The notes under the pieces are model-generated. The model ran no database searches and was not told the DNA's origin. It saw nothing but the letters and a program-made list of their open reading frames with translations. From Candidatus Caenarcanales bacterium (lineage in GTDB: Bacteria > Cyanobacteriota > Vampirovibrionia > LMEP-6097): DNA of 64,000 bases. Both the position numbers and the translations under genes were made by a program. The stretch is from the NCBI GenBank assembly GCA_022447685.1, contig JAKVAO010000004.1, positions 1,978 to 65,977 on the forward strand, given 5' to 3'. Below, piece by piece: positions 5,298 through 38,621 of the stretch (the stretch's first letter is position 1; each line of letters begins with the position of its first letter).

Positions 5298-5361
5298 TAG
5301 GAAATTTTAGCAAGAGAAATCGAAACAAGAAAAAGTGATACCATTTAATTTCGGAGCATCA

Positions 5362-5375
5362 ATACTATCTTAAAT
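5362..5375 (+). promoter_or_regulatory. copy of conserved leader motif (TACTATCTTAAAT) of the effector-like family
   Basis: Near-identical to the TGCTATTATCTTAA motif at 9938 and 18870. It is followed by ...tcaatcaatcctcaagta, homologous to ...tctaattacactccaccctcaagta of the 9956 gene. Confidence 0.35.
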
Positions 5376-5648
5376 TTCAATCAATCCTCAAGTAATCCAA
5401 GCAATAATCATCAAGTTCAAGCAAAACTTGGAGATTTAGCAGATAAAAATATCCTCTTAAACCAAAGATTAAATCAGGGAATTCAAGAAAAACAAGTTCA
5501 AGCAACCAATCAAAGTGCAAATATACAAAGTATAAGTAGTAACAGAAATATTAATGCAGATCTAGCTCCTAGTCCTAAAGAAATAGAGATTATAGAAAAT
5601 CTAATAATCCCCAACGTAAATAAATTTAAAGAACACAATCTTCCTGAA

Positions 5649-6977
5649 ATGCAAATGCACTGGGAAGGTACTAAAAAGAAACAAGGTCCTCTAGCACTAG
5701 AACCTCGAAAACAAGAAGAAATCAAAGCAGCAATATCCAAAGAATCACAGCAAAGCTCAGGTATATTTAATTTATTCAACAAAAAAGAAAATTCACTTAA
5801 CTATGAAGAAGCTGGAGAGAAGAAGGCTCTAGAAGTACTTGAGCTCGGTAGTACCGCTGTAATTTTAGGTGTCAAAGACTCAGAAACAGGTAACTATGAA
5901 AAAGTAATAAGAGTAGATAGTAATTTTCCACCTAATGTCCCTATCACCCAACATCTAGAACACTCTTATCAAAGCCTAGAGTCTCTTCAAGGAAGCCCAT
6001 ACGTAATTCGTGCTTCTGAAACCACACAAGTACAAGACAAAAATGGCAATATCAGCTTTATCTCAGGCGTTGAATACTTAGACAGTGACAAATGGGCGAA
6101 CTTCGATAAGAATCTTGAGGTCTCTGAAGCTAGGGAAAATACTAATATGAGTAAAGCAGAATTAGTTCAGTCTCTAAAAACAGTTCAGGGACTACTTACA
6201 GCTAGTCAAGGAATTTATCAACAGGGAGCAAGCCTTACTAACACTAAAGAATTTAAGGTTAATACTGAAACAGATCAAGCTATTTATGCACATCCAGGTG
6301 GGCTTAAAAAGCCAGTAGACAGTGTCACAGGCGCAATTCTAGGATCTGTACCATTACTAAATCTGAATAATGAATACCAATATGCTAACTATCTTGCAAG
6401 AGCAGATGAGCAGAATCTAAGCCCAGAGGATAGAAATTCTAAAACAGCAGCTATAGCAAATGCTGTCCGTAATCAACAACAAATACCGATTTTCGCAACT
6501 ATGATTGGCTTGGAGCAATCTATTACTGGAAAGTGGCATTATGGAAACGCTCTAAAAAAACCAATACCTAAAGCAATCACTAAAAAAGATACTTTAATTC
6601 AAAAATCACTCTCAGTAAATAACACTTACAATATGAGTTTGGAAAAATACCGCAAACAATTCCAACAAAAATACGCAAGAGACATTGACCAAAACGCTCA
6701 CCATGAAAACTTCAAAGCAATTCTAAAAAAATTACCTGAAAAGCTTGTACAAAATTCCCAACAAAATAAAGAATTACGCAACGAAATAGCAAATCTCGTA
6801 AATGATCTTACTAGTCTTAAGAAAACCAATCCAGGAATGACTGAAAAAGAAGCTTTAAAAAACCCTGAAGGCTATCAATATCGCCTAAGATCTGAAGATG
6901 ATTCAAAAACAGATAAAGAATATAATCCAAGGAAAGAGCAAACTGAAGAAGTTAAGGATCCACTGAAAAACGTCTAA
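5649..6977 (+). CDS. hypothetical Q/N/S-rich protein (effector-like paralog family); start uncertain
   Basis: 442-aa ORF from the first ATG. The same frame is open and coding-like (…NFNQSSSNPSNNHQVQ…) back to 5349 with no ATG. The 5' region is homologous at nucleotide level to the leaders of the 9956/11173, 8412 and 18921 genes. Confidence 0.5.
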   Translation: MQMHWEGTKKKQGPLALEPRKQEEIKAAISKESQQSSGIFNLFNKKENSLNYEEAGEKKALEVLELGSTAVILGVKDSETGNYEKVIRVDSNFPPNVPITQHLEHSYQSLESLQGSPYVIRASETTQVQDKNGNISFISGVEYLDSDKWANFDKNLEVSEARENTNMSKAELVQSLKTVQGLLTASQGIYQQGASLTNTKEFKVNTETDQAIYAHPGGLKKPVDSVTGAILGSVPLLNLNNEYQYANYLARADEQNLSPEDRNSKTAAIANAVRNQQQIPIFATMIGLEQSITGKWHYGNALKKPIPKAITKKDTLIQKSLSVNNTYNMSLEKYRKQFQQKYARDIDQNAHHENFKAILKKLPEKLVQNSQQNKELRNEIANLVNDLTSLKKTNPGMTEKEALKNPEGYQYRLRSEDDSKTDKEYNPRKEQTEEVKDPLKNV

Positions 6978-7146
6978 AGTAACATTTTTCAACCCTTACC
7001 GAGGAATAAATCCTAGCTCAGGGAGCGGATCCTTAATATTCTTTATCAGGCAGTCGCCACTCAAAACTTCGTTTTGCAGTGCCTCCTTAACTTTACAAAT
7101 GTTCAGCGAAGAATAGCTAATATTATTGAGAAGCTAAATCAACCAT

Positions 7147-7204
7147 AAATATGCAGTAAAACTTCAGATTTAAATCGTAAATGTGCAGTAGAACTTCAGA
7201 TTTA
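7147..7204 (+). promoter_or_regulatory. two 26-bp direct repeats (AAATATGCAGTAAAACTTCAGATTTA / AAATGTGCAGTAGAACTTCAGATTTA) upstream of ATPase gene
   Basis: 24 of 26 positions identical with a 32-bp period. The repeats end 4 bp before a TATAAT box at 7209..7214 and the ATG at 7221. Confidence 0.4.
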
Positions 7205-7208
7205 TGGG

Positions 7209-7214
7209 TATAAT
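7209..7214 (+). promoter_or_regulatory. -10 box GGGTATAAT, 6 nt upstream of the ATPase start (leaderless-type)
   Basis: TATAAT hexamer at 7209..7214 and ATG at 7221. The same layout recurs at all four ATPase paralogs. Confidence 0.4.
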
Positions 7215-7220
7215 AAGAAT

Positions 7221-8393
7221 ATGGACTATATTAAACGAGTAATTAAATTACCGAAGAAATATAGTTTTTTCCTTTTTGGACCGAGACAAGTAGGTAAAAG
7301 TACTCTTCTAAAGAAATATTTTTCTGAGACTGAGAGTATGAAATATGATCTATTAGACTTTTCACTACTAAGGAAATTAGAAAAGGATCCCAGTATATTT
7401 TTTAATGAAGTAGAGTCAAGAGCTAAAAAAATAAAATATGTTTTAGTTGATGAAGTACAAAAACTCCCTTGGATACTAGATGAAGTTCATAGAGTGATTG
7501 AGAATAGTGAAAATCCACCTTATTTTATACTCACAGGTTCAAGTTCACGCAAACTAAAACAATCTCAAGCCAATCTTCTAGCTGGCAGGGCAATATCAAA
7601 ATTTCTATTTCCATTTATCTATGAAGAACTGCACAATTTTAATTTAAATGAAATCTTGCAATTCGGTTCTCTACCTAATGTTTATCTTCAGGAGGACAAA
7701 AATATTAAATACGAAATCCTGAAATCATATACCAACACATATATAAAAGAAGAGATTAAAGAAGAAGCTCTGGTTAGAAATCTCAATGCTTTCAATGAAT
7801 TTTTATACTTTGCTGCTGAAGAGAATGGCAATCTAATAAATTACAGCAATATAGCTCAAGATACTGGAGTTAGTTTAAATACGATTAAGGAATATTATCA
7901 AATACTCATGGATACATTAATGGGTTTTATGCTCATGCCAATCAGAAAGTCAGTCAGGCAACAAATAGCAAGAAGCCCAAAGTTCTATTTTTTTGATACT
8001 GGAGTTCAAAGAGCTTTAAGCAACAAACTACAAGTAGCACTAGTCCAAAAAACCAAAGAATACGGTAAAGCTTTTGAGCACTGGCTTATAAAAGAAATCA
8101 TCTATAAATCTAAGTACAACAATAAAGACTATAAGTTTTCTTTCTATAGAGTAAATGAAAATATTGAAGTTGATTTAGTAATTGAAAAGCCAGATGGAGA
8201 AATACTTGCTATAGAAATCAAAGCAAATAATAACCCTAAAGCAGAAAAATTGAAAGGTTTAAAATCATTTAATAAAATTTTCCCTGAAGCAAAGCTAATA
8301 TGCTCCTGTCTTACAGACAAAATCCAAGAGATAAATAAAGATAATTATAAAATTACTATAATTCCATGGCGAGATCTTCTTGAACTTATATGA
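7221..8393 (+). CDS. AAA+ ATPase, DUF4143 family (COG1373), paralog 1
   Basis: Walker A motif LFGPRQVGKST near the N-terminus, an hhhhDE Walker B (YVLVDEVQ) and a C-terminal DUF4143-like region. It is paralogous to the genes at 15624, 17649 and 62291. Confidence 0.8.
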   Translation: MDYIKRVIKLPKKYSFFLFGPRQVGKSTLLKKYFSETESMKYDLLDFSLLRKLEKDPSIFFNEVESRAKKIKYVLVDEVQKLPWILDEVHRVIENSENPPYFILTGSSSRKLKQSQANLLAGRAISKFLFPFIYEELHNFNLNEILQFGSLPNVYLQEDKNIKYEILKSYTNTYIKEEIKEEALVRNLNAFNEFLYFAAEENGNLINYSNIAQDTGVSLNTIKEYYQILMDTLMGFMLMPIRKSVRQQIARSPKFYFFDTGVQRALSNKLQVALVQKTKEYGKAFEHWLIKEIIYKSKYNNKDYKFSFYRVNENIEVDLVIEKPDGEILAIEIKANNNPKAEKLKGLKSFNKIFPEAKLICSCLTDKIQEINKDNYKITIIPWRDLLELI

Positions 8394-8395
8394 TC

Positions 8396-8409
8396 TGTTA
8401 TTATCTTGG
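8396..8409 (+). promoter_or_regulatory. conserved leader motif copy (TGTTATTATCTTGG) before ATG 8412
   Basis: The TATTAT hexamer lies 8 nt upstream of the ATG. Shares ATTATCTT with the 9938 and 18870 copies. Confidence 0.35.
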
Positions 8410-8411
8410 AT

Positions 8412-9344
8412 ATGGTAACGAATCCTCCTCCTAGTCTTCCTCCTCAAAATGCAGCTTTAGTTAAATTTACCGATACTAATATTGAGAATAGAGTTCCACC
8501 CAATGCTAATCAGGCAATGAATCAAACTAAAGATAAAGATGGAAGGAATCCAATTGATTTAATTTTGGCACAAAAACAAATAAATAATAATTCAGATTCA
8601 ATGAGACCAGAAGATGTAGTTAAAAGACAAATCAACACAAGTATCAAAAATTATGAAGATCTAGAAAGAGTTATCAATGAGACACCAAATGTTATTGACA
8701 CTGAGACTCAAAAAGCATTAGGACAACTTATCACTAATCTAACAGTCTTAAGAGACAATATAGATATTCCTTCTATAACAGAAAATCAAGAATCTCAAAG
8801 TCTGTTATCAAATATTGAACTAATGTCAGGAGCTTTAAATATCTTTAACAGTCAAAGAGCATACATTACTAATAACGATAATACTAATAGACCTGATAAC
8901 TTAGAAGAGAGAACTCAAGTTTTGAACACTTTAAAACAAAATCTCCCAATAGTCATCAACACACAATTAACTAATAGCCAAAAACTTATAAGTACAGCTG
9001 TACTAAAACCACAATATGAGAGTATCATGAATAATTTTGATTCAGCAATTAAGCAACTTCAAAACAACCCTGAAGCTAGTTCAATACTAAAAAATGCCCA
9101 AACTGATCTAAATTTATTTAAAGAAATACTAGGCACAGGTGGAGCAAGTTCTGAATCCGTCATAAATAAGACTTTAACTCTTAATCAAGAACTCACTGAT
9201 TTAAATAATCAACTCAAAGACGGAACTGTTGAAGATTTCGGTCTCAATAATGTTGTGGGTTTTATCGCAAAACTAAGTGATGATCTAGTAGTTGAAGGTA
9301 AAGCACTCGATATACAAGAGGATTTACAAAATATACAAAATTAA
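8412..9344 (+). CDS. hypothetical Q/N-rich effector-like protein (N-terminus MVTNPPPSLPP)
   Basis: The ORF track starts at TTG 8406, but the first ATG is at 8412. The protein has the N-terminal P-P-S motif shared with three other genes and no recognisable domain. The frame continues coding-like for 51 codons after the TAA stop (9345..9500). Confidence 0.6.
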   Translation: MVTNPPPSLPPQNAALVKFTDTNIENRVPPNANQAMNQTKDKDGRNPIDLILAQKQINNNSDSMRPEDVVKRQINTSIKNYEDLERVINETPNVIDTETQKALGQLITNLTVLRDNIDIPSITENQESQSLLSNIELMSGALNIFNSQRAYITNNDNTNRPDNLEERTQVLNTLKQNLPIVINTQLTNSQKLISTAVLKPQYESIMNNFDSAIKQLQNNPEASSILKNAQTDLNLFKEILGTGGASSESVINKTLTLNQELTDLNNQLKDGTVEDFGLNNVVGFIAKLSDDLVVEGKALDIQEDLQNIQN

Positions 9345-9504
9345 AGAGCACAAGAATTAAAAAAAGCAGCCTGGCAAGACCTAATTAAAGCAAGAACATT
9401 TGAAACAATACCACCACAACAAGCCCTACAAGGGGGAAATAATACTGGTATTAACCCTGCACTACTCCTTCAAATCAGAAATCAATTTCTAAATAATTAA
9501 AACC

Positions 9505-9873
9505 CTAAGCCTTCAAATCAGGTCTCAAATTAGCAGCCTCACCAAGGTAAACATGCTTAACCTCAGCTTGCTCCACTGGCAAATTACACTGAACTAATAA
9601 ACGCACACATCTAGCGAGCATGCCATCTATCTGCGGCTCCTGAGATGTGAAAAAAGGTATATGCTGCCAGCCCATACCCTGACGTATAGCTGATGACGCA
9701 TTCAAAGAAGTTAAATCAGAAGTCATAGTCAGAAACAGCATAACAATATCAGCTTCAGGCTTGATATTGTTCTTCTCTATAATCTGCTTGATCATTTCAA
9801 GTGACGCAGCTTTAATTTCTTCAGCACTATCAACATTGACAGTGGTAGCTCCACGAATTGCAACTAATCCCAT
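9505..9873 (-). CDS. aroH: AroH-class monofunctional chorismate mutase
   Basis: 122 aa. MGLVAIRGATTVNVDSAEEI...RPDLKA aligns along its length with Bacillus AroH (MMIRGIRGATTVE...LRPDL). Confidence 0.75.
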   Translation of the reverse strand: MGLVAIRGATTVNVDSAEEIKAASLEMIKQIIEKNNIKPEADIVMLFLTMTSDLTSLNASSAIRQGMGWQHIPFFTSQEPQIDGMLARCVRLLVQCNLPVEQAEVKHVYLGEAANLRPDLKA

Positions 9874-9937
9874 GAATACTAAGTTTAGCAGGTAGTATCT
9901 GAATAATTGTAGAAGAGTTCAAATTCAAGATAAAATT

Positions 9938-9951
9938 TGCTATTATCTTAA
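9938..9951 (+). promoter_or_regulatory. conserved leader motif TGCTATTATCTTAA immediately upstream of the pre-insertion start codon (ATG 9956)
   Basis: Identical 14-mer at 18870..18883. The TATTAT hexamer lies 9 nt before the ATG at 9956. Confidence 0.4.
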
Positions 9952-9959
9952 AATTATGA

Positions 9960-9967
9960 TTTCTAAT
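9960..9967. repeat. left copy of 8-bp target-site duplication TTTCTAAT
   Basis: Identical octamer at 11219..11226, directly abutting the IS inverted repeats. Confidence 0.6.
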
Positions 9968-11218
9968 TCAGGGCAACCGCAAAGTCGTCTTAGCTATTTT
10001 GGAAAAGAATATCTTGTAAGTACTGATTACTAGAAGCCGCTTTAACTCTTCGTGTTTTAAGACTTTTCTTCGACTCAGAATCTTTTTTAAGTAAATTTAA
10101 AGCAATTTTTCTAGCCATAGCAAGGTTTTGTGGAGCATTATCCTTTCTTACTCTTGATTCATCTTCTCTAAAAACAACATCTAAAATACAATGTAAGTTG
10201 TTTTCTATGTTCCAATGAGATCTAACAATATTCAGCAACTCTTCTGCAGAAAGGTTTAAGCTCGTTATGTAATATCTTCTTTGGCTGGTTTCTTTTTTTG
10301 TTTTTACATCATATTTTTGAGATTCAACAACAAATACCGTTTTTAAATCTTTCCAAGCTGTAATATTATCAAAAAGTTTTTCTTTAATATCCCACTCCGT
10401 GAGAGGGACTGTGTAACATAGAAGTTTTTCAATTCTTCCATGATCTTTCTCAAATTTAGTTTCAAAAAAATCATACTCTCTTTTAAAACCTTCTTCTATT
10501 CCTTTATCTAAAAAGCTTTTTACATTTTTATGGAACAAGCCTTGATTACCTTTTAAAGCTAAAACATAATCAGCTTTTGCTTTTCTAATATCTTTTGCTA
10601 TTTCTTTTTGACAGCCCATTGCATCGATAGTTACTATCTTCTTATTCAAGTCTAAAAGCCTTATCAGTTCAGGAATTGCTGTAATTTCATTACTCTTTTT
10701 GTCTACTGCCACTTGTCCAAGACTCAAGCCATTACTACAACACCAAACATTTACTAAGTGCAAGGCTGACTTTTTTGAGCTATTTTCATATGAAGATCTC
10801 AATGTTTTACCATCAATAGCTACTATTGCTCCTTCTGTGATAGTTGCAAGCGCTTGTGACCAAGCAGTAAAACAGTTAGCAAATTCCTTTGGATTTATTT
10901 CTGCAAAAACTCTTTCAAAAGTATCATGGGACGGGATGCCGTGTTTTAAATCTAAAAAAGTTCTTAACCAATCTTCTTTCGCTTCACATATTGCTACTAT
11001 TTCCTCCCAGTCATCAGTTTTACAGATACTTCCGACTATCGCTAAGAGAATTATTTCTAGCAAATCGTGACGTTTTCCACGAGAATCACGAGGATCTTCT
11101 AGCTCATTAAAATATTCTTCTACTAAACTTTTACTTACTTTCACAACTCTATTAAGTCATGAATACTGGCTATTGGCCAGACTTACATTCGTATTAGACG
11201 ACTTTGCGGTTGCCCTGA
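9968..11218 (-). mobile_element. ISAs1-family insertion sequence (1251 bp), intact
   Basis: ~23-bp terminal inverted repeats: TCAGGGCAACCGCAAAGTCGTCT at 9968.. and its reverse complement ending at 11218. It contains a single transposase ORF and is flanked by the 8-bp direct repeat TTTCTAAT. Confidence 0.8.
9990..11144 (-). CDS. ISAs1-family (H-repeat-associated) DDE transposase
   Basis: 384 aa carrying the ISAs1 hallmark blocks KSNEITAIPELIRLLD, DAMGCQKEIA, LKGNQG, YYITSL and SHWNIENNLHCILDVVFREDE. Confidence 0.85.
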   Translation of the reverse strand: MKVSKSLVEEYFNELEDPRDSRGKRHDLLEIILLAIVGSICKTDDWEEIVAICEAKEDWLRTFLDLKHGIPSHDTFERVFAEINPKEFANCFTAWSQALATITEGAIVAIDGKTLRSSYENSSKKSALHLVNVWCCSNGLSLGQVAVDKKSNEITAIPELIRLLDLNKKIVTIDAMGCQKEIAKDIRKAKADYVLALKGNQGLFHKNVKSFLDKGIEEGFKREYDFFETKFEKDHGRIEKLLCYTVPLTEWDIKEKLFDNITAWKDLKTVFVVESQKYDVKTKKETSQRRYYITSLNLSAEELLNIVRSHWNIENNLHCILDVVFREDESRVRKDNAPQNLAMARKIALNLLKKDSESKKSLKTRRVKAASSNQYLQDILFQNS

Positions 11219-11991
11219 TTTCTAATTACACTCCACCCTCAAGTACTATAAGTTTCAATTACAACAACACAAATCAGACTTTAGTTAAGACTATTGATTA
11301 TAAAGAGCCGGAACTTAATATACCTGGATCTGATGCTAGTCAGAAAATGAAAGCAACAGAAAATGATAATAGAAACAATCATACCCTGACAACAAAACTT
11401 AATGCTATTCCAACAAATATAGAAAACACTGAAAACCTAGTAGCAATAAAAGTACCAGACAACTTTAATATGCAGCAATTTGAAAATATAGGTAGAGAAT
11501 TGTCAGAAGAACTTAATATTCAAATTGAAAAACCTGAAGAGCAAGCTCCAGATCTAAGTGATTTCATTGACATGAAAGAAATTAATCAATTTAACAACAA
11601 TGATACACAAGGAAAAACAGATACACTTCTTAAAACCTTTACAGAAGTAAGAAACTTTTTAAACAAGCCAGAAACTAATATATTTGGAAAAGTAGTTATA
11701 GATACAATGCTAGACAGCCTCTCAAAACTAGTAAAGGAAAATTATGATCAAGTAATTAAGAACGAGACTAACAATAACTCCAAGGATAATTTTAATAAAC
11801 TATTTTTACAATTAAGAGTACTTAAAGTGATTTTAGAAAAGCAAAACACAATTAATAATCTAAATCCCCCAGGACATGACCGACACGACCAAATCGCAGC
11901 AGAAGGCAGAGATATTATTCATACATACGTTGGAAAAATAATTAACCAGACCAATACAATACTTCCAGAAGACCAACAAATGGACTTATAA
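11173..11991 (+). CDS. hypothetical effector-like protein, 5' end replaced by the IS insertion (the present ORF starts at a TTG inside the IS inverted repeat)
   Basis: Removing 9968..11226 restores ...TATCTTAAAATT ATG ATT TCT AAT TAC ACT CCA CCC TCA AGT, encoding MISNYTPPSS, which joins in frame to the downstream body. The Q/N-rich body has no known domain. Confidence 0.6.
   Translation: MARLTFVLDDFAVALISNYTPPSSTISFNYNNTNQTLVKTIDYKEPELNIPGSDASQKMKATENDNRNNHTLTTKLNAIPTNIENTENLVAIKVPDNFNMQQFENIGRELSEELNIQIEKPEEQAPDLSDFIDMKEINQFNNNDTQGKTDTLLKTFTEVRNFLNKPETNIFGKVVIDTMLDSLSKLVKENYDQVIKNETNNNSKDNFNKLFLQLRVLKVILEKQNTINNLNPPGHDRHDQIAAEGRDIIHTYVGKIINQTNTILPEDQQMDL
11219..11226. repeat. right copy of 8-bp target-site duplication TTTCTAAT
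   Basis: Matches 9960..9967. Confidence 0.6.
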
Positions 11992-11992
11992 A

Positions 11993-12400
11993 TTATCTAA
12001 CAACCAAAAACTCAGCTATTAATGCATTAAAATCATCAGCAAAGTCATTGTATGCACTAACGAAGCCTATGGTATGCTTACTTCCAAAAAATTCTTCCAT
12101 AGCTTCACAGAAGTAAGCATCATCGAAATCACTGTATTCAGTGTTAATAATAATATCTAAAGTATCCTCATAGGCGCCTGGATCGAAATCCAATAATTTT
12201 TTTCTAAATTTGAAAAACTCCGCTACTGAATTCTGAATATATTCTTTACTCAATCTCGAATAATCTTCACGAGTAAGATCATTAAATCTTGATTTCATAT
12301 CAATAGTCGCAGCGATTAACTGATTAATTCTACCTCTGATGTATAAATCTTTGAGAGATAAAATTTCTAAGCAATATACTTTTAATTTCTTGCCCTTCAT
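11993..12400 (-). CDS. hypothetical protein (135 aa)
   Basis: Clean ORF with coding-like composition and no recognisable motif. Confidence 0.45.
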   Translation of the reverse strand: MKGKKLKVYCLEILSLKDLYIRGRINQLIAATIDMKSRFNDLTREDYSRLSKEYIQNSVAEFFKFRKKLLDFDPGAYEDTLDIIINTEYSDFDDAYFCEAMEEFFGSKHTIGFVSAYNDFADDFNALIAEFLVVR

Positions 12401-12572
12401 ATCATCTTATATCGACAGATCTATGCTTTCGCAAACTAGAGGGAAGGTACTATATTTAATTTTTATATTCATAAAAAATCAGTCTTTCATACCACTAAAT
12501 AAAGATATGCTATTCATTTGAACCGATTTTGCGTCACTGAAAGAATACAGCAAATTTGCTACTATAACTAAG

Positions 12573-12926
12573 ATGGAAACGAAAATGCAGCATCAAACAC
12601 CGTGGGGAGCTTGGGAAGTTTTGGATGATGCTGAATCGCATAAAGTTAAGAAAGTCACGATTAAACCTGGTCACAGACTAAGTTACCAGAAGCATTTTAA
12701 AAGAGAAGAGAATTGGTTTATAGTTCAAGGTAAAGCCAAAGTCACTCTAAATGATGAAGAGCATACTCTCAGCACAGGCGAATTTATCCATATTCCATTT
12801 GAAGCTTTACACCGAATCGAAAACATTGATGACACCATTGAACTCATATTTATTGAAATTCAGAGAGGTTCTTACTTCGGAGAGGACGACATAGTACGTG
12901 TGTCTGATGATTACGGTAGAGATTAG
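12573..12926 (+). CDS. cupin-domain protein (mannose-6-phosphate isomerase type II C-terminal cupin-like)
   Basis: WGAWEVLDDAESHKVKKVTIKPGHRLSYQKHFKREENWFIVQGKAKV...GEFIHIPFEALHRIENIDDT...IEIQRG is the classic stand-alone cupin_2 pattern. Confidence 0.7.
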   Translation: METKMQHQTPWGAWEVLDDAESHKVKKVTIKPGHRLSYQKHFKREENWFIVQGKAKVTLNDEEHTLSTGEFIHIPFEALHRIENIDDTIELIFIEIQRGSYFGEDDIVRVSDDYGRD

Positions 12927-12942
12927 GGTATAATCTCTAGGT

Positions 12943-14199
12943 ATGGCAGAAAAAAAAGGAAATTTCTTCTTCACTTCAGAATCAGTAAGTGAAGGTCACC
13001 CAGATAAGATTTGTGATCAAATCTCAGACGCAGTCTTGGACGCGATTTTATCGAAAGACCAGACGGCGAGGGTTGCCTGTGAAACATTTTGTACTACTGG
13101 ACTTGTAGTTGTAGGTGGTGAAATCACAACTAATTGCTACGCTCCAGTAAATGAGATCGCAAGAGACAAAATTAGAGAAATTGGTTACTCAGGAAAAATG
13201 GGCGGCGGTTTCGACGCTGATAACTGTTCTGTAATGGTAACTTTAGACCAACAATCAGCTGATATCTGTGCAGGTGTTGATAAATCACTAGAAACTAGAG
13301 ACAGCGATGAAGAAGATACTGGTGCTGGTGACCAAGGAATTATGTTTGGCTTTGCTTGTAATGAAACTTCAGAGTACATGCCGCTTGCAATTAATCTTTC
13401 ACACGCGATAGTGAAACAATTAGCTGATGTCAGAAAAAATCACCCTGATATCAACTATCTAAGACCTGACTCTAAGTCTCAAGTAACTATAGAGTATAGA
13501 GACGGTGTAGCTGCAAGAATAGAAGCTATAGTAGTTTCCACACAGCACGATCCAGAAGTTAAGGGTGAAACAGAAAACTCTAAAATCCAAGAAATTATTG
13601 CACAGGATATTAGAAAACTAGTTATAGACAAAGTCCTAAAAGACGCACCAGTTAAAATTGATGATAAAACCAAACTCTACTTCAATCCATCAGGAAGATT
13701 CGTAATCGGTGGACCACAAGGTGACGCTGGTCTTACTGGTAGAAAAATTATAGTAGATACCTACGGTGGCTATGCCCGTCATGGTGGTGGTGCTTTCTCA
13801 GGAAAAGACCCAACCAAAGTAGATAGATCCGCTGCTTATGCAGCACGCCATGCAGCGAAAAATATAGTAGCTGCTGGTTTAGCTGAACAATGTGAAATTC
13901 AACTTTCTTATGCTATTGGTGTAGCCAAGCCTACAAGCATTTACGTAAACACGTTCACAACTAGTGAACATTCTGACGAGAAACTTGTTCAAATTATCGA
14001 ACAAGTTTTCGATTTCAGACCTAAAAAGATCATTGAGAACTTCGATTTACTGTGGATGCCAGCTAAAAGAAATGGTAGGTTCTATCAAGAAACAGCTAAA
14101 TATGGTCACTTCGGTAGAGATGATTTAGATTTGCCTTGGGAAAGACTTGATAAAGTTGATGAAATTAAGAAAGTTCTTGAAAGTGCTTGTGTGGCTTAA
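12943..14199 (+). CDS. metK: S-adenosylmethionine synthetase
   Basis: [39 protein letters not shown] and [23 protein letters not shown] are MetK signature blocks. Confidence 0.95.
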
Positions 14200-14266
14200 G
14201 TAGCTCTTTATAATAAAATTATTAACAATAGGAAAATCTTTAAAATAAGAAGATAAGATTTTCTGA

Positions 14267-15505
14267 ATGATACCTAGCAGCTCTGGTGATAAATTTGATA
14301 AAGTTCAGCCTTCAAGTACTTCTAACGCAATAACGAGAAAGCAACAAGGAAACGAAGTCAGTGAAATAAAGAACCAAGATTCTAATGTATTTTCTGCTAA
14401 AGGGAATCAAGAACCACTTACTATAGATTTTAATGAAAGACCCCTAAGTGAAGAAGAACAAAAAATTCTTGCTTTAGTCCCAGAGAACCTAAGAGCCCCA
14501 GTCTTATACTTCATGCTTCATTTAGATGAAAAAGAAGGCAAAGCTGCGATATTAAATAATTTAAGTCAGAATCTAAATCCTGCTTTCTTACTAGCTCAAA
14601 TGAATGGTCAAGACGAAAGTGTATCTTATGCTATGCCTGAGTATCAAAGCAGAGCAAATTATCTGGAAACAAATGATAATAATACAGCTGCCTACTCACA
14701 AGCTAAAACAAGACAGAAAAGAACCTTAGTAGAAAATCTATCAAACTTATCAACTGATAATTTAGCTGAACTTGAAGAAATTACCGCTGCTTTAGTGCAA
14801 AGTGCTAAAGAAAATCAAAATATTCAAATCAGCCCAGAAGCTGTGCAATTATTAGAAAATATTAAACCGGAAATCAGTCTTTTAAGTCCACAGGAAAGAC
14901 AAGAGTTTTTCTCTGCCATGTACTTCATTAAAGATGCTGTTGCCAGTAATATAATTAGAGAAGAGGATGAGGGAAAATTTATACCAAACCAAGAGAACAA
15001 TATGTTTGATCCACAAGATAGTATTCTTGAGATAAATCGTCTGAAAACAATGCAAGCAGACTTAAATACAATGCAACAGCTCGGAATAATAAATGATCAA
15101 AATCTCTACAAAACCATAAAAAATAATCTTAGCCGCCAAGCCAAAAATCTAGGTCAACACAATATGGTTCACAAAGCTTTAATTACAATTGCTGCTATCA
15201 ATGCCTTACAGGGTAAAGATTTTCAAATAAACTCTGATTTCATCAGCAAAGAAGAGCAGGGAAGATTTATACACGCAAATACTTTAGACGCAACAGTAAT
15301 TTCACAAGAAGCTAAACAATATATGTCAAGCAATATTAATTTCTATGACATTGCCAAACTAGGCTCAAGAATTCTAGAGGAACTGAAATCTTCCAAACAA
15401 AATAGCTCAGAATCAAGTATCAAGCAACTCAAAACAGCTGCAGAATCTGTGAGAAAAGAAAAACCTGAATTGTTTGACAATCTTCATTTAACAGTTAGTT
15501 TATAG
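14267..15505 (+). CDS. hypothetical Q/N/S-rich effector-like protein (N-terminus MIPSSSGD)
   Basis: 412 aa with no domain hit by eye. Has the N-terminal P-S-S motif of the family and ends with TAG. Confidence 0.6.
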   Translation: MIPSSSGDKFDKVQPSSTSNAITRKQQGNEVSEIKNQDSNVFSAKGNQEPLTIDFNERPLSEEEQKILALVPENLRAPVLYFMLHLDEKEGKAAILNNLSQNLNPAFLLAQMNGQDESVSYAMPEYQSRANYLETNDNNTAAYSQAKTRQKRTLVENLSNLSTDNLAELEEITAALVQSAKENQNIQISPEAVQLLENIKPEISLLSPQERQEFFSAMYFIKDAVASNIIREEDEGKFIPNQENNMFDPQDSILEINRLKTMQADLNTMQQLGIINDQNLYKTIKNNLSRQAKNLGQHNMVHKALITIAAINALQGKDFQINSDFISKEEQGRFIHANTLDATVISQEAKQYMSSNINFYDIAKLGSRILEELKSSKQNSSESSIKQLKTAAESVRKEKPELFDNLHLTVSL

Positions 15506-15611
15506 CTATGTTGCACCAAACCTAAATCGACGAATACTTTATTTTCCATAAGATTGCTAAGCGTTTCTAAGCAATTATTAACAAATCGCAAAAAATTTGC
15601 AATTTCATAGG

Positions 15612-15617
15612 TATAAT
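15612..15617 (+). promoter_or_regulatory. -10 box AGGTATAAT, 6 nt upstream of ATG 15624
   Basis: Same GGTATAAT-N6-ATG arrangement as at 7209 and 62278. Confidence 0.4.
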
Positions 15618-15623
15618 ACAAAT

Positions 15624-16829
15624 ATGCAAAAAATTTCCCGAACAATATTAAGTAAATTAATATCTGAGCTGGAGAACGACAAAGTATTGATTCTTTTAGG
15701 AGCAAGGCAAGTTGGTAAAAGCTTTCTAATGAATGAACTAGAGTTAAAACTTAAAAAAGCATCCAAGAAATTTAATAGCTATAACTTAGAAATCCCAAAA
15801 GATAACCGAATCTTCGCTAGAGATGAATTAGAGCTATATGAAGAAATCAGTGAAGGAGTAAATTATTTATTTATAGATGAATTTCAATATTATAATAATG
15901 CTTCTCATTTATTCAAAGCCTTTTATGATGATAGAAGAAAAAAAATCAAAGTTATAGCATCTGGTTCATCTGCTTTAGAAATGCATAAACACCTAAAAGA
16001 AAGTTTAGCTGGCAGAAAAAAAACCTATATTATTTACCCACTTAGCTTCAAAGAAGCTCAAGAAACCAAGGTCAGTTTTAATAATTATTTACTATACGGT
16101 GCTTTAGCAGAAATCCTTAATATAGAACAAAAAACAGATAAAATCACTGCACTTGAAGAAATACACAGTACTTATATATTAAAAGATATCAAAGCACTGA
16201 TTAAAGAAGAAAGTATTTCTAGTTTCAATGCTTTAATATACAGCTTAGCTCAAAACCAAGGACAAATTATTTCAAGTAATTCTTTAGCGAATGATTTGCG
16301 TTTAAATACACAAAGCTTAGAGCGTTACCTAGAGATTCTAGAACAAACCTATGTTCTTTATAAATTATCTAGTTTTTCTAAAAACTTAAGTAATGAGCTA
16401 AAAAAATCTAAAAAATACTATTTTTATGACAGTGGAATTCGAAACTCAATACTAAATAACTTCTCATCGATAGAAAAAAGAAAAGATAAAGGCAGTATCT
16501 ACGAAGCTTACGTAGCACAATTCTTAACTATTAACTCAATACCAAACTCAGAGCTTCGCTTCTGGAGAACCAGGAATGGAGATGAAATTGATTTCGTATT
16601 CTTAAAAAACCAAGTTCCGTATTTATTTGAGGTAAAATCGAAACTAAAAAGAAAAGAAATTCCAAATGCTATGAAAATCTTTTTGCGTAATTACCGTGAG
16701 ATTGGTGGAGCTTATATCATTAACGAAAACCTTGATGAGGAACTAGAATATTCTGGAGTAACTGTAAGATTTATTCCAATTAATAAGCTAGAAGAAGATT
16801 TGGAGATAGCTGAAATATTTTCAACTTAA
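15624..16829 (+). CDS. AAA+ ATPase, DUF4143 family, paralog 2
   Basis: The ORF track starts at TTG 15597, which would run through the TATAAT box. From ATG 15624 the protein MQKISRTILSKLISELENDKVLILLGARQVGKSF aligns with the N-terminus of paralog 3 and shows high identity to it overall. Confidence 0.8.
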   Translation: MQKISRTILSKLISELENDKVLILLGARQVGKSFLMNELELKLKKASKKFNSYNLEIPKDNRIFARDELELYEEISEGVNYLFIDEFQYYNNASHLFKAFYDDRRKKIKVIASGSSALEMHKHLKESLAGRKKTYIIYPLSFKEAQETKVSFNNYLLYGALAEILNIEQKTDKITALEEIHSTYILKDIKALIKEESISSFNALIYSLAQNQGQIISSNSLANDLRLNTQSLERYLEILEQTYVLYKLSSFSKNLSNELKKSKKYYFYDSGIRNSILNNFSSIEKRKDKGSIYEAYVAQFLTINSIPNSELRFWRTRNGDEIDFVFLKNQVPYLFEVKSKLKRKEIPNAMKIFLRNYREIGGAYIINENLDEELEYSGVTVRFIPINKLEEDLEIAEIFST

Positions 16830-16834
16830 TCTAA

Positions 16835-17530
16835 CTAAGCTTCCGCTTTCTTAGACTTTATATCCTTCAGCTCCGCTTCCAAAGACTCAATCTTCTCCTG
16901 CATAGCCTGCAAAGTAGCACCAACAAAGTCCGGTGTCTTATTATGCTCTAAATTATCAATATTATCTATGCATTCTTTGAGTTCACCATTCATTTTCACA
17001 ATTCGTCCTGGGATTCCTACCACTGTTGAATAAGATGGAATATCCTTTAGAACTACTGAATTAGCACCAACTTGAACATAATCCCCAATATCTATATTTC
17101 CCAAAACCTTGGCTCCAGCACCAACGACAATATTCGAAGCTAAAGTCGGATGACGTTTTTCTTTTTTCGTAGAAACTCCACCTAAGGTCACTCCCTGATA
17201 GAGTGTTACATTATCACCAATGATAGTAGTTTCACCAATGACCACCCCTGTGCCATGATCTATAAAAAAATCTTTCCCTATCTGTGCCGCTGGGTGAATC
17301 TCAATACCAGTAATAATCTTAATTACATGAGCTGAGACTCTTACTATAAATTTGGTAAGTGGTTTGAGAAAAGCTAAAAAACCATAATCTTTAGTCCACA
17401 AAACATGAAAAATTCTATGCGCCAAAATCGCATGAAAACCTGGGTAACAAAATAAAATTTCAAAAATTGAGTTACAGGCAGGATCTTTCCTGTAGATATT
17501 TTTTATCTCCTCCTGAAAAGTCCTGAACAT
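16835..17530 (-). CDS. cysE: serine O-acetyltransferase
   Basis: C-terminal left-handed beta-helix hexapeptide repeats (GIEIHPAAQIGKDFFIDHGTGVVIGETTIIGDNVTLYQGVTLGG) and an N-terminal SAT helical domain. Confidence 0.85.
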   Translation of the reverse strand: MFRTFQEEIKNIYRKDPACNSIFEILFCYPGFHAILAHRIFHVLWTKDYGFLAFLKPLTKFIVRVSAHVIKIITGIEIHPAAQIGKDFFIDHGTGVVIGETTIIGDNVTLYQGVTLGGVSTKKEKRHPTLASNIVVGAGAKVLGNIDIGDYVQVGANSVVLKDIPSYSTVVGIPGRIVKMNGELKECIDNIDNLEHNKTPDFVGATLQAMQEKIESLEAELKDIKSKKAEA

Positions 17531-17572
17531 ATTTGTGATTATACTATGACTGGAAATTGGATAATTTTGACC

Positions 17573-17611
17573 TTACTTAAGAATCCTGCCACTAGCAAGA
17601 TTCTTAAGTAA
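17573..17611. promoter_or_regulatory. perfect 13-bp inverted repeat TTACTTAAGAATC-N13-GATTCTTAAGTAA in the cysE/ATPase divergent region
   Basis: Arms 17573..17585 and 17599..17611 are exact reverse complements. The element sits about 25 bp upstream of the -10-like box of the ATPase gene. Confidence 0.35.
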
Positions 17612-17636
17612 TGGTTAGGAATTCCACCCAAAGTGG

Positions 17637-17642
17637 TAAAAT
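17637..17642 (+). promoter_or_regulatory. -10-like box GGTAAAAT, 6 nt upstream of ATG 17649
   Basis: Conserved position relative to the start in all four ATPase paralogs. Confidence 0.35.
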
Positions 17643-17648
17643 TAAGTA

Positions 17649-18863
17649 ATGCAGGAATTTCAAAGACAATTAATAGAAACCCTGCTTAAAGAACTTACGA
17701 ACTCTAAAGTTACCTTAATCTTTGGACCTAGACAGAGTGGTAAAAGCTTTTTGATGAATCACATAGCAAGTCAAGTAAAAGGCAAATTTACTTACTACGA
17801 TTTTGAACAACCTGCTGATCTTAGAAAATTTACAGGCAATGATGAGGATATACATGAACTACTTCTAAATTCAGGCAAAACAGTATTCATAGACGAATTT
17901 CATTATCTAAAAAATGCCGGGAAAATTTTTAAAGGAATCTATGACTTAGGTAAACGTAACCCTAAAAAACAAATCAAAATCTTTGCCTCCGGCTCTTCTG
18001 CCATTGAAATGCACAAACATATAAAAGAAAGTATGGCTGGAAGAGTTCACAAATACCAACTTATGCCTCTAAGCTTAGAAGAATACTCATCTATTGATTT
18101 AGATAAAGAAAATTACTTTATTTATGGTGGCTTACCAGAGACTTATCAATATGACGGAGAAGAAAGAGAGAGCTACCTAAATGGTATTCTTGAAACCTAC
18201 ATCCAGAAAGACATTAAATCTCTAGTAAAAGAAGAGAACATTTCAAGTTTTAATAAATTAATCTATATGCTTGCAGCAAGTCAAGGACAAGTAGTCTCAG
18301 TGAGTAATCTTGCAAATGACTTAAGCGTATCAGCACAAACAGTTCAATCTTACCTAGATACTTTGGAGCAGACTTATACTCTTTATCCTTTGAAATCCTT
18401 TTCAAATAACCTTAGCAATGAATTAAAAAAATCGCGTAAGTACTACCTCTATGACCTAGGAATTAGAAATGCACTAATTAAAGACTTTAGTAAATTAAAT
18501 GAGCGCAAAGATCTTGGCTGCATTATGGAAAGCTATGTTTATCACTATCTTCTCTTCATAGCCAATAAAGCAAATACCGATATTTTCTTCTGGAGAACTA
18601 GTAAAGGCAATGAGGTAGACTTCGTCTGGAAAAAAAATCAAAAACTTATTCCTATAGAGGTAAAAAACAAATATGAAGTGAGTAATCTTAGTAAAGGTAT
18701 GGAAACCTTCATGAGATATTACCCTCTAACAGAAAAAGCTATTATTTTGTTTAATAAGTCAAATAATTTTGATGATTATCAGGAAATTAATCTTCGAGGT
18801 AGGACTCTTTATTTAATAAATATTGGAAATGCTCATTTATACTTGAGGGATGTTTTGCAGTAG
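17649..18863 (+). CDS. AAA+ ATPase, DUF4143 family, paralog 3
   Basis: Walker A motif IFGPRQSGKSF, with long blocks identical to paralog 2 (SSFN.LIY.LA..QGQ..S.SNLANDL.....Q....YL..LEQTY.LY.L.SFS.NLSNELKKS.KYY.YD.GIRN). Confidence 0.8.
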   Translation: MQEFQRQLIETLLKELTNSKVTLIFGPRQSGKSFLMNHIASQVKGKFTYYDFEQPADLRKFTGNDEDIHELLLNSGKTVFIDEFHYLKNAGKIFKGIYDLGKRNPKKQIKIFASGSSAIEMHKHIKESMAGRVHKYQLMPLSLEEYSSIDLDKENYFIYGGLPETYQYDGEERESYLNGILETYIQKDIKSLVKEENISSFNKLIYMLAASQGQVVSVSNLANDLSVSAQTVQSYLDTLEQTYTLYPLKSFSNNLSNELKKSRKYYLYDLGIRNALIKDFSKLNERKDLGCIMESYVYHYLLFIANKANTDIFFWRTSKGNEVDFVWKKNQKLIPIEVKNKYEVSNLSKGMETFMRYYPLTEKAIILFNKSNNFDDYQEINLRGRTLYLINIGNAHLYLRDVLQ

Positions 18864-18869
18864 AACCCA

Positions 18870-18883
18870 TGCTATTATCTTAA
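18870..18883 (+). promoter_or_regulatory. conserved leader motif TGCTATTATCTTAA upstream of the 18921 gene
   Basis: 14 of 14 identical to 9938..9951. It is followed by a vestigial ATGATCTAT (compare ATGATTTCT at 9956), and then TTAAAATATGATT resembles TTAAAATTATGATT at 9956. Confidence 0.4.
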
Positions 18884-18920
18884 TCCTATGATCTATTATA
18901 TTTAGGTTTCAAATTAAAAT

Positions 18921-20453
18921 ATGATTAACCCAAGCTCAAATCAAAGAGACCCCAACATTAGATTCTTACTGAAAACAAATGGTGAAAAAATAACAGTAAC
19001 ACCTTATAAACAAGCTCCTATTGCCAACAAAATTCTCCACAAAAAAGATCAAACAATTCCAAGAGAAGAAACACCTAAAATAAATCCAGAAATGACAGCA
19101 GGAGATTTAACAGAAATATTATTTACATTCAAGCCAAGTGACTTCTACAACAAACAAAATAACGAAAATTTAAGAGTAGTTATAAAGGAGAAAGCAGATT
19201 TTGGCTTTGAAAGGGAAGTTAGAAAGTGGAGAGAGAAATTCCCCAAATTAAACTTTAAACAAAGATTGGGATTCTTATCTATGTTTGCAGAAAAACATGA
19301 AGAGCTAAATATAAAAACAAATCAATTTAAAAGAAATAATGACCACCTAAGAAAATTTATAGACAACCGAGCTTTAGAATTTTTAAGAAATGAAATAGCC
19401 AAGGAAGAACTTTTCTCAAATAAAAATAAAGATTCTAAAGAATTTAATGATTTCAATAATCTATTTATTTCACTAAAAAAACTCAGACACGGTTGGGCAT
19501 ATAGGCAAGACAGTATTCATCAGTTATTAGTACAAAAAATTGACTGGGAAAAACCGCTGACAGACAATACCTTGAAGCTAATAGAAAGTAGTTTCATACA
19601 TCCCATAGAACATTATGCACAAGGTAAAAGAGTTGAATACTATGAAGAAAGAGAATTACTTGCAGAAGTAAGTGCAAACTTAAAAAAATATAATCATCCA
19701 AAACAAGAAATATACAAAAATGCCTTCGAATATAATCCTAATCAAGAATTTGCATTAGCAAAATTAACAGATGTATTGGAAGAGTATTTAAAAGAACAAA
19801 AATTGTCTAACATGGGTGAAAATATGTCACCAGAAATCAATTATGCAATCGAAGGTTCGCTATATTCAATTTTCCATGACTACGCACATTATCTTTTAAA
19901 TGATGAAAATTTTATACCAAATCTTGAAAATGAAAATAAAAGTGAAGAAGATGAATTAAAAGTTAGACAAAATGAATTAAGAGTAGCTGCTGCTGAAGGT
20001 CTGATGTACTTCATATTAGATATACGCTCCTCCGGAAGATTTTCACCATCAAATGAATGGGCGGATTCATCCTACGCAAATCAACTAGAGTATTATAATA
20101 AATACAGAGATACCACACCAGGCTTAAGTAAAGAAGAAGTAGAAGTATCCAAACTTTATGGTATTTTTATGGCTCTCCAAACTATAAACCATAATATGAA
20201 TGTACTTAAAAATTATTCAAACAACAAACTTTTAAACTATCACACTAAGACAAGCGACCTAGCAAAATTTGAGCCTGCACCTACAAAAATAATAGTTAAT
20301 GGCGAGGAAACTACTTGGTACGAACTAATCAAAAAAGATCCTGCTAAATTTGAAAAAATCATTTCTGACTCAATAGATAAAATACTAGAAAATCGAAAAA
20401 AATCTGAAGAAATTATCCCAGACTCAACAGATGAAAATAAAGCTAAAATATAA
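18921..20453 (+). CDS. hypothetical K/N/E-rich effector-like protein (N-terminus MINPSSNQRDP)
   Basis: 510 aa with the N-terminal P-S-S motif of the family and no recognisable domain. Confidence 0.6.
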   Translation: MINPSSNQRDPNIRFLLKTNGEKITVTPYKQAPIANKILHKKDQTIPREETPKINPEMTAGDLTEILFTFKPSDFYNKQNNENLRVVIKEKADFGFEREVRKWREKFPKLNFKQRLGFLSMFAEKHEELNIKTNQFKRNNDHLRKFIDNRALEFLRNEIAKEELFSNKNKDSKEFNDFNNLFISLKKLRHGWAYRQDSIHQLLVQKIDWEKPLTDNTLKLIESSFIHPIEHYAQGKRVEYYEERELLAEVSANLKKYNHPKQEIYKNAFEYNPNQEFALAKLTDVLEEYLKEQKLSNMGENMSPEINYAIEGSLYSIFHDYAHYLLNDENFIPNLENENKSEEDELKVRQNELRVAAAEGLMYFILDIRSSGRFSPSNEWADSSYANQLEYYNKYRDTTPGLSKEEVEVSKLYGIFMALQTINHNMNVLKNYSNNKLLNYHTKTSDLAKFEPAPTKIIVNGEETTWYELIKKDPAKFEKIISDSIDKILENRKKSEEIIPDSTDENKAKI

Positions 20454-37727: not shown

Positions 37728-38621
37728 TTAAACAAGTTTTTCTTCAATAAGATCATGAAGTTTATCTTTACTTTTTTGAGTAACACTATCGATAAATGAA
37801 TAAGCTCTATAAATGTGCAAATCCTCGAAAGTTTTTTGGAGTTTTTCTTGAAGTTTAGATTGTTGTTTATTCATATTAACAGTCACTTCAGGGAAATAAA
37901 CTTTTGGAAAAAAAGAATCTTTAATATAATTAGTCATCTTCTCTACAGAGTCAAAATTAACAGTATTATCAACAAGAGATTTAATGAATTTATCAATGTT
38001 TTCATTCTTTCTTATTTCATTATTTGCACTTGGATTAATATCTATAAAACGGTGATACAAAGCTTTTGCACTATCTTCTAAACTAGCATAAGATTTTTCC
38101 GTAGGAGTTTCAACTATATATCCCATACTTGGATTCCTATAAGAACCTTCAAGATACAAAGAATCAATTAAGGGTAAAGCATTTTGCTCGATAAACTCTT
38201 CTACTATTTTAGGGTTACTTTTTTTAAGTAAATGAGACAACCAGAAAATTTGATGATTAAATGAAAACAAATCACGTTGAAACTCTTCTTTAAACTGCAA
38301 GTCATCATCAAAAAATTGAGACAAAGTTTGCTGCTTATTAGACAGTGGGTCATATCTGTAATATTCATGTGTGAAATTATCTAACTTTTCTTTAAATCTA
38401 CCTAACTCCTCTTTCTGCATTTGCAAAAAATCTGATTCAGGAATAACAGAAATACTCTTCAAAGGCTCATTTGGCTTTTTGAAAAGTACTCCATATTTTT
38501 TGGTATAAAGTTCATTAGCATTTCTAACTTGAAGATCAGCTTCGGCAACAGTAACTTTATTCTCAGTATTTAAATGAGAAGTAACAGGTTCTTTTAAAGT
38601 AGTAGTAACTGCCTTAACCAT
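37728..38621 (-). CDS. hypothetical protein (297 aa)
   Basis: Clean ORF with coding-like composition and no motif recognised. Confidence 0.55.
   Translation of the reverse strand: MVKAVTTTLKEPVTSHLNTENKVTVAEADLQVRNANELYTKKYGVLFKKPNEPLKSISVIPESDFLQMQKEELGRFKEKLDNFTHEYYRYDPLSNKQQTLSQFFDDDLQFKEEFQRDLFSFNHQIFWLSHLLKKSNPKIVEEFIEQNALPLIDSLYLEGSYRNPSMGYIVETPTEKSYASLEDSAKALYHRFIDINPSANNEIRKNENIDKFIKSLVDNTVNFDSVEKMTNYIKDSFFPKVYFPEVTVNMNKQQSKLQEKLQKTFEDLHIYRAYSFIDSVTQKSKDKLHDLIEEKLV

Follow-up and report, generated by a model that had tools for sequence, protein, structure and literature searches.

Predicted leaderless promoters and a small, divergent orphan family in a marine Caenarcaniphilales bacterium

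This study concerns a 64,000-nt stretch of DNA (the window) from the metagenome-assembled genome (MAG) of a marine Candidatus Caenarcaniphilales bacterium (contig JAKVAO010000004.1; GC content ~33%, locus tags MK033_013xx) and five of its genes, designated here A to E, which a preliminary description had taken for a family of effector-like proteins with a shared DNA leader and a shared N-terminal export signal. We find that this observation merges three things: a general leaderless-promoter layout, a narrow family that includes B and C, and a compositional likeness among the N termini of unrelated orphan proteins. The claimed leader appears to be a promoter, a TG-extended −10 box (TGnTATTAT) located 7 to 9 nt from the ATG, with predicted promoter activity. 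In the explanation that we favor, this promoter would have TATTAT as its −10 hexamer, in most cases with TGn ahead of it, and then CTT(A/G)(A/G), a further 2 to 4 nt, and the ATG. Because the box is placed against the ATG, transcription would begin on the start codon itself or a few nt away from it, and the resulting messenger RNA (mRNA) would be leaderless or nearly so. The core of the box, TATTATCTT, may be a sub-variant of the ordinary start layout of this genome, that of about one-third of its genes, and would have been inherited by descent in a small, fast-evolving, lineage-restricted family of helical proteins with disordered N termini, comprising B and C in the window and P0034 and P0037 in a related species. 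The same promoter variant would also drive unrelated orphans, namely E and a 101-aa gene beyond the window, and D, E, and A would resemble B and C only in their polar, S/P/N-rich, disordered N termini, which are not conserved in orthologues or positional equivalents. Taken as a whole, we consider this explanation likely.

Caenarcaniphilales are nonphotosynthetic relatives of cyanobacteria. The window was compared with the genome of a related species (DT-Caenarcaniphilales-1, GCA_013216135.1; DT_14 below), which is syntenic with it across the region; in all, ~75 kb of the window species and ~28 kb of DT_14 were used. DT-Caenarcaniphilales-1 belongs to those deep-trap MAGs to which their authors later assigned a shallow, photic-zone origin (PMC9426571). 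The five genes, one of which is interrupted by an insertion sequence (IS), are arranged as follows.

5349 to 6977, + strand: gene A, with the frame open from 5349, the first ATG at 5649, and the end at 6977
8412 to 9344, + strand: gene B (MVTNPPPSLPP...NANQAMNQ), MCH2226398.1
9956 to 9968, + strand: original start of gene C, comprising the ATG and the left copy of a 10-bp target duplication
9969 to 11217, − strand: insertion sequence of ISAs1 type inside gene C
11218 to 11991, + strand: body of gene C (ISNYTPPSS...DASQKMK...NPPGHD)
14267 to 15505, + strand: gene D, orphan-like, start MIPSSS, no box
18888 to 18905, + strand: five-codon mini-open reading frame (mini-ORF) ATGATCTATTATATTTAG, beginning ATGATC 4 nt past the box upstream of gene E
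18921 to 20453, + strand: gene E

The promoter box and the layout of gene starts

Both exact copies of the 14-mer TGCTATTATCTTAA that had been reported were found, at 9938 to 9951 and 18870 to 18883, with no other copy in the window, and the claimed related copies, TGTTATTATCTTGG at 8396 and TACTATCTTAA at 5363, are present as well. These and other related sites are located as follows.

5363 to 5373, + strand: degenerate box TACTAT-CTTAA before gene A, matching the 14-mer in 10/14 positions, with no ATG following
8396 to 8409, + strand: box variant TGTTATTATCTTGG before gene B, a TG-extended −10 with TATTAT at 8399 to 8404, 7 nt from the ATG
9938 to 9951, + strand: 14-mer TGCTATTATCTTAA before gene C, a TG-extended −10 with TATTAT at 9941 to 9946 and the ATG 9 nt past the hexamer
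18870 to 18883, + strand: 14-mer TGCTATTATCTTAA before gene E, 6 nt past the stop of ATPase 3 and 37 nt ahead of the ATG of E
38751 to 38759, − strand: core TATTATCTT, ~130 nt upstream of a 297-aa Cys-free hypothetical gene (37728 to 38621, − strand)
62107 to 62120, − strand: related box TACAATTATCTTAA, 16 nt ahead of the ATG of a 573-aa hypothetical gene (MSNSIPIAK)

The 14-mer parses as TG-C-TATTAT-CTTAA, that is, as an extended −10 box. The distance from the TATTAT hexamer to the ATG is 7 nt in B, P0037, and the 101-aa orphan, 8 nt in P0034, and 9 nt in C. As in the extended −10 promoters of the sigma-70 type (TGnTATAAT), a single base separates the TG from the hexamer in C, E, B, P0037, and the 101-aa gene, and the −35 element is weak or absent; the promoter of C has a −35-like TTCAAA at 9918, at a spacing of 17 nt. 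In contrast to those promoters, the hexamer here is TATTAT with a conserved CTT(A/G)(A/G) tail, and P0034 and A are without the TG. It is this TATTAT-CTT(A/G)(A/G) flavor of the box that is particular to the present gene set. A generic scan for promoters and terminators yielded no excess over shuffles in this AT-rich DNA and was informative only for the −35 and TG elements at C, and no Rfam RNA family matched anywhere in the window. The 14-mer was also considered as a 3′ element of ATPase genes, given that it directly follows the stops of ATPase 1 and ATPase 3; this was rejected, as no ATPase adjoins it at C, P0034, or P0037.

A single exact pair of 14-mers in 64 kb of AT-rich DNA is at chance level, and copies with two or fewer mismatches are not above shuffles. 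The 9-mer core TATTATCTT is enriched in the window, with 8 copies against 2.6 expected, a count reached in 0 of 100 shuffles, and it is kept at the orthologous genes of DT_14 (L003 positions 916, 2110, and 11225). The box had been described as co-occurring with a P-S-S protein start. Co-occurrence is incomplete, since the box also heads E′, the DT_14 orthologue of E, and the 101-aa orphan (MLVNSTILNT...; L020 14943 to 15248, − strand), neither of which has a P-S-S start; ahead of the latter the same promoter variant reads TGTTATTATCTTAAgaATG. This orphan lies ~4 kb past the end of the window on the same contig, upstream of a 96-aa orphan and a fifth ATPase. The 573-aa hypothetical protein (60369 to 62090, − strand) has no family match, and its gene begins ATG TCT AAT TCG ATT CCA (MSNSIP), which by eye is like the start of C minus codon 2.

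The upstream 40 nt were listed for every gene, and many housekeeping genes have a TATAAT-like box nearly touching the ATG, for example GGGTATAAT 6 nt from the ATG of ATPase 1 and 8 nt from that of metK, and TATAAT 7 nt from that of cysE; GGGTATAAT is found at three box-bearing starts. With the box defined as a TAnnnT hexamer that matches TATAAT in at least 5 of 6 positions and lies 6 to 9 nt upstream of the start, and with a Shine–Dalgarno (SD)-like core sought at −16 to −4, 17 of the 50 annotated starts carry a box, compared with 47 of 1,864 other ATGs (2.5%; p = 3e-15). An SD-like core is present at none of these 17 starts and at 10 of the remaining 33. The 17 include metK, cysE, the ATPases, B (7 nt), and C (9 nt), and box-to-start sites lie, for example, at 7206 to 7220, 12926 to 12942, 17531 to 17550 (− strand), and 62275 to 62290. 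By these spacing statistics and the absence of SD cores, the proposal that TATTAT is the −10 of a leaderless mRNA appears to be the best-supported reading, and leaderless mRNAs appear to be common in this Caenarcaniphilales genome, at about one-third of genes.

The same signature, TAnnnT 6 to 9 nt before the start with no SD core at about one-third of genes, resembles that of the TA-led leaderless genes, which Zheng et al. (2011) called by TANNNT ~10 to 12 bp upstream of the start (PMC3160421). That class has been described mainly for Actinobacteria and Deinococcus-Thermus, whereas here it is seen in Caenarcaniphilales and is known from sequence spacing. Among the papers searched, none linked leaderless genes to Melainabacteria. 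Because the −10 box abuts the start in housekeeping genes too, it is not a family trait. Thus, of the shared promoter or leader that had been claimed, the common box remains, but it is not family specific, and its placement against the start is general in the genome.

The B/C family and the orphans A, D, and E

The N termini of B, D, and E read as had been reported (MVTNPPPSLPP at 8412, MIPSSSGD at 14267, and MINPSSNQRDP at 18921), and excision of the IS from C indeed restores ATG-ATT-TCT-AAT-TAC-ACT-CCA-CCC-TCA-AGT, encoding MISNYTPPSS. A five-member family, however, could not be upheld: the best pairwise blastp E-value among A to E is 0.4, and B/C profiles do not match A, D, or E. To judge from the sequences, only two of the five proteins, B and C, are demonstrably related to each other, and we infer that they are genuine, very divergent paralogues with a common promoter and N terminus. 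The short motif P[PS]S or PS[SL] occurs at 4 of 50 N termini and in 0.3% of internal 12-residue windows, a comparison for a motif chosen post hoc in which two of the four are paralogues.

The IS (9969 to 11217) splits C after codon 4. It has 26-nt terminal inverted repeats with 96% complementarity and is flanked by a 10-bp target duplication, ATTTCTAATT, at 9959 to 9968 and 11218 to 11227. Its transposase (9990 to 11144) contains DDE_Tnp_1_assoc (PF13808, 1.8e-32) and DDE_Tnp_1 (PF01609, 2.1e-24), and from this combination we take the element to be a member of the ISAs1 family. One 209-aa database protein, P0036, consists of an IS-derived start, the first ~73 residues of C, and a hydrophobic, membrane-protein-like tail; it represents a rearranged strain or an assembly chimera, and the IS insertion in C is thus present in other samples.

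In DT_14, a tandem pair of genes comes after that for chorismate mutase: P0034 (358 aa, start MTPNYIPPSL, with CCTTATTATCTTAAgctATG ahead of it) and P0037 (248 aa, start MAITTPPPPQ, with TGCTATTATCTTGCacATG ahead of it). C and P0034 occupy syntenic positions, each adjoining the chorismate mutase gene. Collinear in B, C, P0034, and P0037 are the box, PP(S/P) at residues 5 to 10, and A[SAN]Q[AK]M at approximately residues 32 to 45; C, P0034, and P0037, but not B, also contain NPPGxD ~50 residues from the C terminus. In the six-frame ORFs of the two species (45,044 residues), A[SAN]Q[AK]M and NPPG.D were found nowhere but in these proteins. A tblastn comparison of the first 51 residues of C with P0034 gave 40% identity, and the two proteins are 43% identical over the first 50 residues compared with 27% over the rest; outside the first 50 residues, identities within the family are 26 to 30%, in compositionally biased sequence. 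The best-kept protein parts are the start, M-x-x-N-(Y)-x-P-P-S, and A-x-Q-x-M ~35 residues in. A profile built from B, C, and P0034 recovered P0037 at E = 2.8e-9 and no further members among 1.84 billion representative proteins; this exhaustive search gave 5 matches, all from the two species. A separate homologue search with the family profile likewise returned nothing beyond the family.

E is not a member of the B/C family. Its homologues fall in 3 clusters only. The DT_14 orthologue, E′, is 38% identical, starts MKIQKTQEKYH, and aligns only from residue 54 on, so the P-S-S start is absent from it though the same box lies upstream. The box ahead of E recurs without change in DT_14, and it is right after this box that the two species stop being homologous. 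The dN/dS ratio of E between strains is 0.41, compared with at most 0.19 for its neighbours, which marks E as a real, fast-evolving gene. The mini-ORF just past the box is possibly the relic of a leaderless start; in strain L001, its ATG is changed to GTG. Within E, the C-terminal segment APTKIIVNGEETTWYELIKKDPAKFEKII (20283 to 20370, approximately residues 455 to 483) shows only two substitutions relative to the 38%-identical orthologue and is a strongly constrained module.

A is a strict, species-specific orphan with a degenerate box, and a search for homologues among 5.8 billion proteins returned only A itself. The frame claimed upstream of 5649 is present: it is open from 5349 for 100 codons, contains no ATG, GTG, or TTG, and reads ...NQSSSNPS. 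The chance of 100 such codons is ~4e-4, as estimated from base composition in this AT-rich DNA. That A has lost its ATG, as had been suggested, is plausible, given that an in-frame TCAAGT aligns with the 5′ end of C if ~7 nt including the ATG were deleted, but it is unproven; the open 5′ region suggests either a recently lost start or a noncanonical one. Across 5349 to 5648, the seven contigs retrieved are all identical. At the position of A, DT_14 has an unrelated orphan starting MLSLLTLQ (MLSLLTLQPINPE), and at the position of D, another starting MSLSINSNLQ; D itself has no counterpart there. D and E carry a nonconserved resemblance to the B/C family only. On contig L021 (ERZ27252478 k141_785034), positions 6463 to 12844, a different gene set comes after A, with a 143-aa gene, genes for an NTP-transferase and a DUF525 protein, a 390-aa gene, and ArgRS. 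This set replaces ATPase 1, B, and chorismate mutase, and reflects either a strain-level rearrangement or an assembly chimera.

Several points weigh against descent of a leaderless promoter with a small family as the explanation of these data. The evidence for leaderless starts consists of spacing statistics. At E, the box lies 37 nt from the ATG in the window and 52 nt in DT_14, so that this box does not make E leaderless. Moreover, in strain L001, which is closer, the box upstream of E reads TGCCATTAT and its −10 hexamer begins with C instead of T, which weakens the case for this box as the working promoter of E and makes its present role uncertain. Leave-one-out profiles fail to recover B or C, and the membership of B therefore comes from its promoter, N terminus, short motif, and genomic context. 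Finally, D and E both start M-I-(N)-P-S-S, for which the nominal P is ~0.01 among 48 unrelated genes with a motif chosen post hoc; chance does not fully explain this shared start.

Export, defence, and cassette exchange as alternatives

Among the alternatives, the one that survives best holds that A to E are cargo of an export system that reads N-terminal signals, flagellar type III or other, with the polar, disordered N terminus serving as the signal. Under this alternative, the AxQxM segment of B and C could be a chaperone- or gate-binding site, and the shared promoter would co-regulate the genes. We regard it as unlikely. Flagellar genes have been reported for Caenarcaniphilales (PMC4040986), and this organism has at least one flagellar rod gene; the rod machinery noted in the window is this one fragment.

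3 to 491, + strand: 3′ part of a flagellar rod/hook (FlgE/F/G-type) gene, clipped by the window edge (Pfam Flg_bbr_C 4.9e-13, LlgE_F_G_D1 9.7e-13)

At full length (contigs L021 and L022), the gene encodes 255 aa, and it is missing from the ORF list because the window edge cuts it. A search of the window for export apparatus, chaperones, and effector-type domains found none.

The protein traits can be read both ways. As had been stated, the N termini of A to E are polar: they rank 1, 2, 3, 5, and 6 of 50 for S/T/N/P/Q in the first 25 residues, but this composition mirrors that of the whole proteins. None of the five has a Sec-type N terminus or a membrane segment, and their Cys count is 0 against 13.6 expected, although Cys-free proteins are common in the window (15 of 50). 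None gave a significant match in Pfam, NCBIfam, PADLOC, or PDB sequence searches. Structure prediction, which had been proposed for each protein body, was done with AlphaFold2 (AF2) for E and for P0034 of DT_14. Residues 1 to 49 of E and 1 to 62 of P0034 are predicted to be disordered, and a helical domain follows (residues 50 to 270 in E); the fold matches were generic helical ones, with none to any effector. A G-poor, CA-rich coding bias for leaderless translation was tried as the cause of the polar N termini and was rejected, as CA-richness is no higher at the 5′ ends than within the gene bodies.

Divergence is also fast. Between the window and DT_14, neighbouring genes are 74 to 96% identical, whereas E is 38% and B/C ~25% identical, and DT_14 lacks A, D, ATPase 1, and ATPase 2, so that the orphans overall show 20 to 38% identity or replacement. 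This rate, with the dN/dS of E and the better-kept first 50 residues of C and P0034, would suit exported proteins. However, neither the orthologue of E nor the genes at the positions of A and D in DT_14 keep the P-S-S start, and, as noted, the box heads genes without that motif. The type III signals that are known lack a conserved sequence motif, so that finding such a motif here is no evidence for one.

With the substrates of injectisome and flagellar type III systems, A to E share a disordered, Ser/Thr/Asn/Pro-rich N terminus, rapid evolution, the lack of a Sec signal, and a scarcity or absence of Cys. They differ in that no chaperone, effector domain, or apparatus gene past the one rod fragment accompanies them, the comparison being of genes only, and in that the N-terminal motif is kept only within the B/C family. 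With ORFan families of variable regions, they share the absence of homologues outside one genus-level clade and of Pfam, PDB, or fold matches, and replacement between sister species; here, in contrast, the promoter and N terminus are retained while the body diverges, and PDC-S01 ATPases adjoin. The traits fit exported or conflict-related proteins and equally fit lineage-specific disordered orphans. The term effector-like therefore holds as a description of the polar, disordered, Cys-free N termini and fast evolution, but not of a five-member cargo family.

A narrower form of the export proposal would have B, C, and possibly neighbouring orphans exported by a particle- or eukaryote-associated marine melainabacterium through a flagellar-type gate or another system, with M-x-x-N-Y-x-P-P-S and AxQxM serving as a signal for export or docking, and with co-regulation by a leaderless promoter class of their own, marked by TATTATCTT. 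We give this form an even smaller chance; if true, nonphotosynthetic cyanobacteria would thereby gain their first described effector repertoire and export signal.

Three other proteins of the window were noted. A 135-aa protein convergent with C (11993 to 12400, − strand) is acidic (pI 4.8), has no family match, and is 85% conserved in place in DT_14; its size and charge recall secretion chaperones, and nothing else supports that. An 852-aa Cys-free RTX protein (47897 to 50455, − strand; HemolysinCabind 2e-59), encoded by 27-nt tandem repeats, is probably secreted by a type I system; in DT_14, a related 1022-aa RTX gene stands in the place of D and ATPase 2. Lastly, a 1817-aa protein (30226 to 35679, − strand) has a signal-peptide-like start, ~30-residue (90-nt) repeats, and no Pfam match.

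A second alternative starts from the neighbours of these genes and would make the orphans cargo or partners of a hypervariable, defence-island-like region around the ATPase-nuclease genes that match PDC-S01, with turnover driven by phage conflict rather than host interaction. The neighbours are as follows.

Before 5349, − strand: CDP-alcohol phosphatidyltransferase
7221 to 8393, + strand: AAA_14/DUF4143 ATPase 1, PADLOC candidate defence gene PDC-S01, with GGGTATAAT 6 nt ahead of the ATG
9505 to 9873, − strand: chorismate mutase
11993 to 12400, − strand: the 135-aa gene, followed by a cupin gene and then metK (ATG at 12943)
15624 to 16829, + strand: AAA_14/DUF4143 ATPase 2 (PDC-S01), followed by cysE (− strand, ATG at 17530)
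17649 to 18863, + strand: AAA_14/DUF4143 ATPase 3 (PDC-S01)
62291 to 63523: fourth ATPase (PDC-S01)
L020 13194 to 14378, − strand: fifth ATPase (PDC-S01)

Four AAA_14/DUF4143 ATPases matching PDC-S01 thus lie in the window and a fifth just beyond it (E = 1e-65 to 1.9e-149), all within ~75 kb and 21 to 44% identical to each other. B starts 18 nt past the stop of ATPase 1 and E starts 57 nt past that of ATPase 3, and the ATPase 3–E pair is retained in DT_14, where ATPase 3 is 95% identical and ATPases 1 and 2 are absent. That the region is variable is indicated jointly by the ATPases, the IS, and its presence/absence differences. However, PDC-S01 is a widespread single-gene candidate whose defence role awaits experimental validation (PMC12988326), the DT_14 family genes P0034 and P0037 adjoin no ATPase, no orphan matches a PADLOC model, and the housekeeping genes metK, cysE, and chorismate mutase lie in the same region. 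We therefore hold the defence alternative to be improbable.

Least probable of all is that the 14-mer is a junction for cassette-like recombinational exchange of gene bodies behind a fixed promoter and start, which would explain the common box and first codons: the end of homology right after the 14-mer at the ATPase 3–E junction, the relic ATGATC past the box upstream of E, and the degenerate box and in-frame, C-like TCAAGT without ATG at A would fit, but the comparison covers two species only, a selected promoter amid freely drifting flanks would look no different, neither a recombinase nor a repeated flanking site turned up, and E and E′ are homologous from residue 54 on, so that the gene body was not swapped.

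Significance of the leaderless layout and the variable region

Leaderless extended −10 promoters and orphan families are both known kinds; the abundance of leaderless starts in Caenarcaniphilales is the most reusable by-product of the analysis. The promoter-by-descent explanation also serves as a correction, in that what seemed to be a family-specific leader and export signal would be mostly the normal leaderless-promoter layout of the genome, plus a single small family of paralogous orphans. That leaderless mRNAs appear to be abundant matters for gene-start calling and for translation initiation in a sister lineage of the photosynthetic cyanobacteria. In addition, the contrast in rates between housekeeping genes and the orphans that diverge or are replaced near the PDC-S01 ATPases indicates a place to seek conflict-driven genes, whether the conflict is with host or phage.

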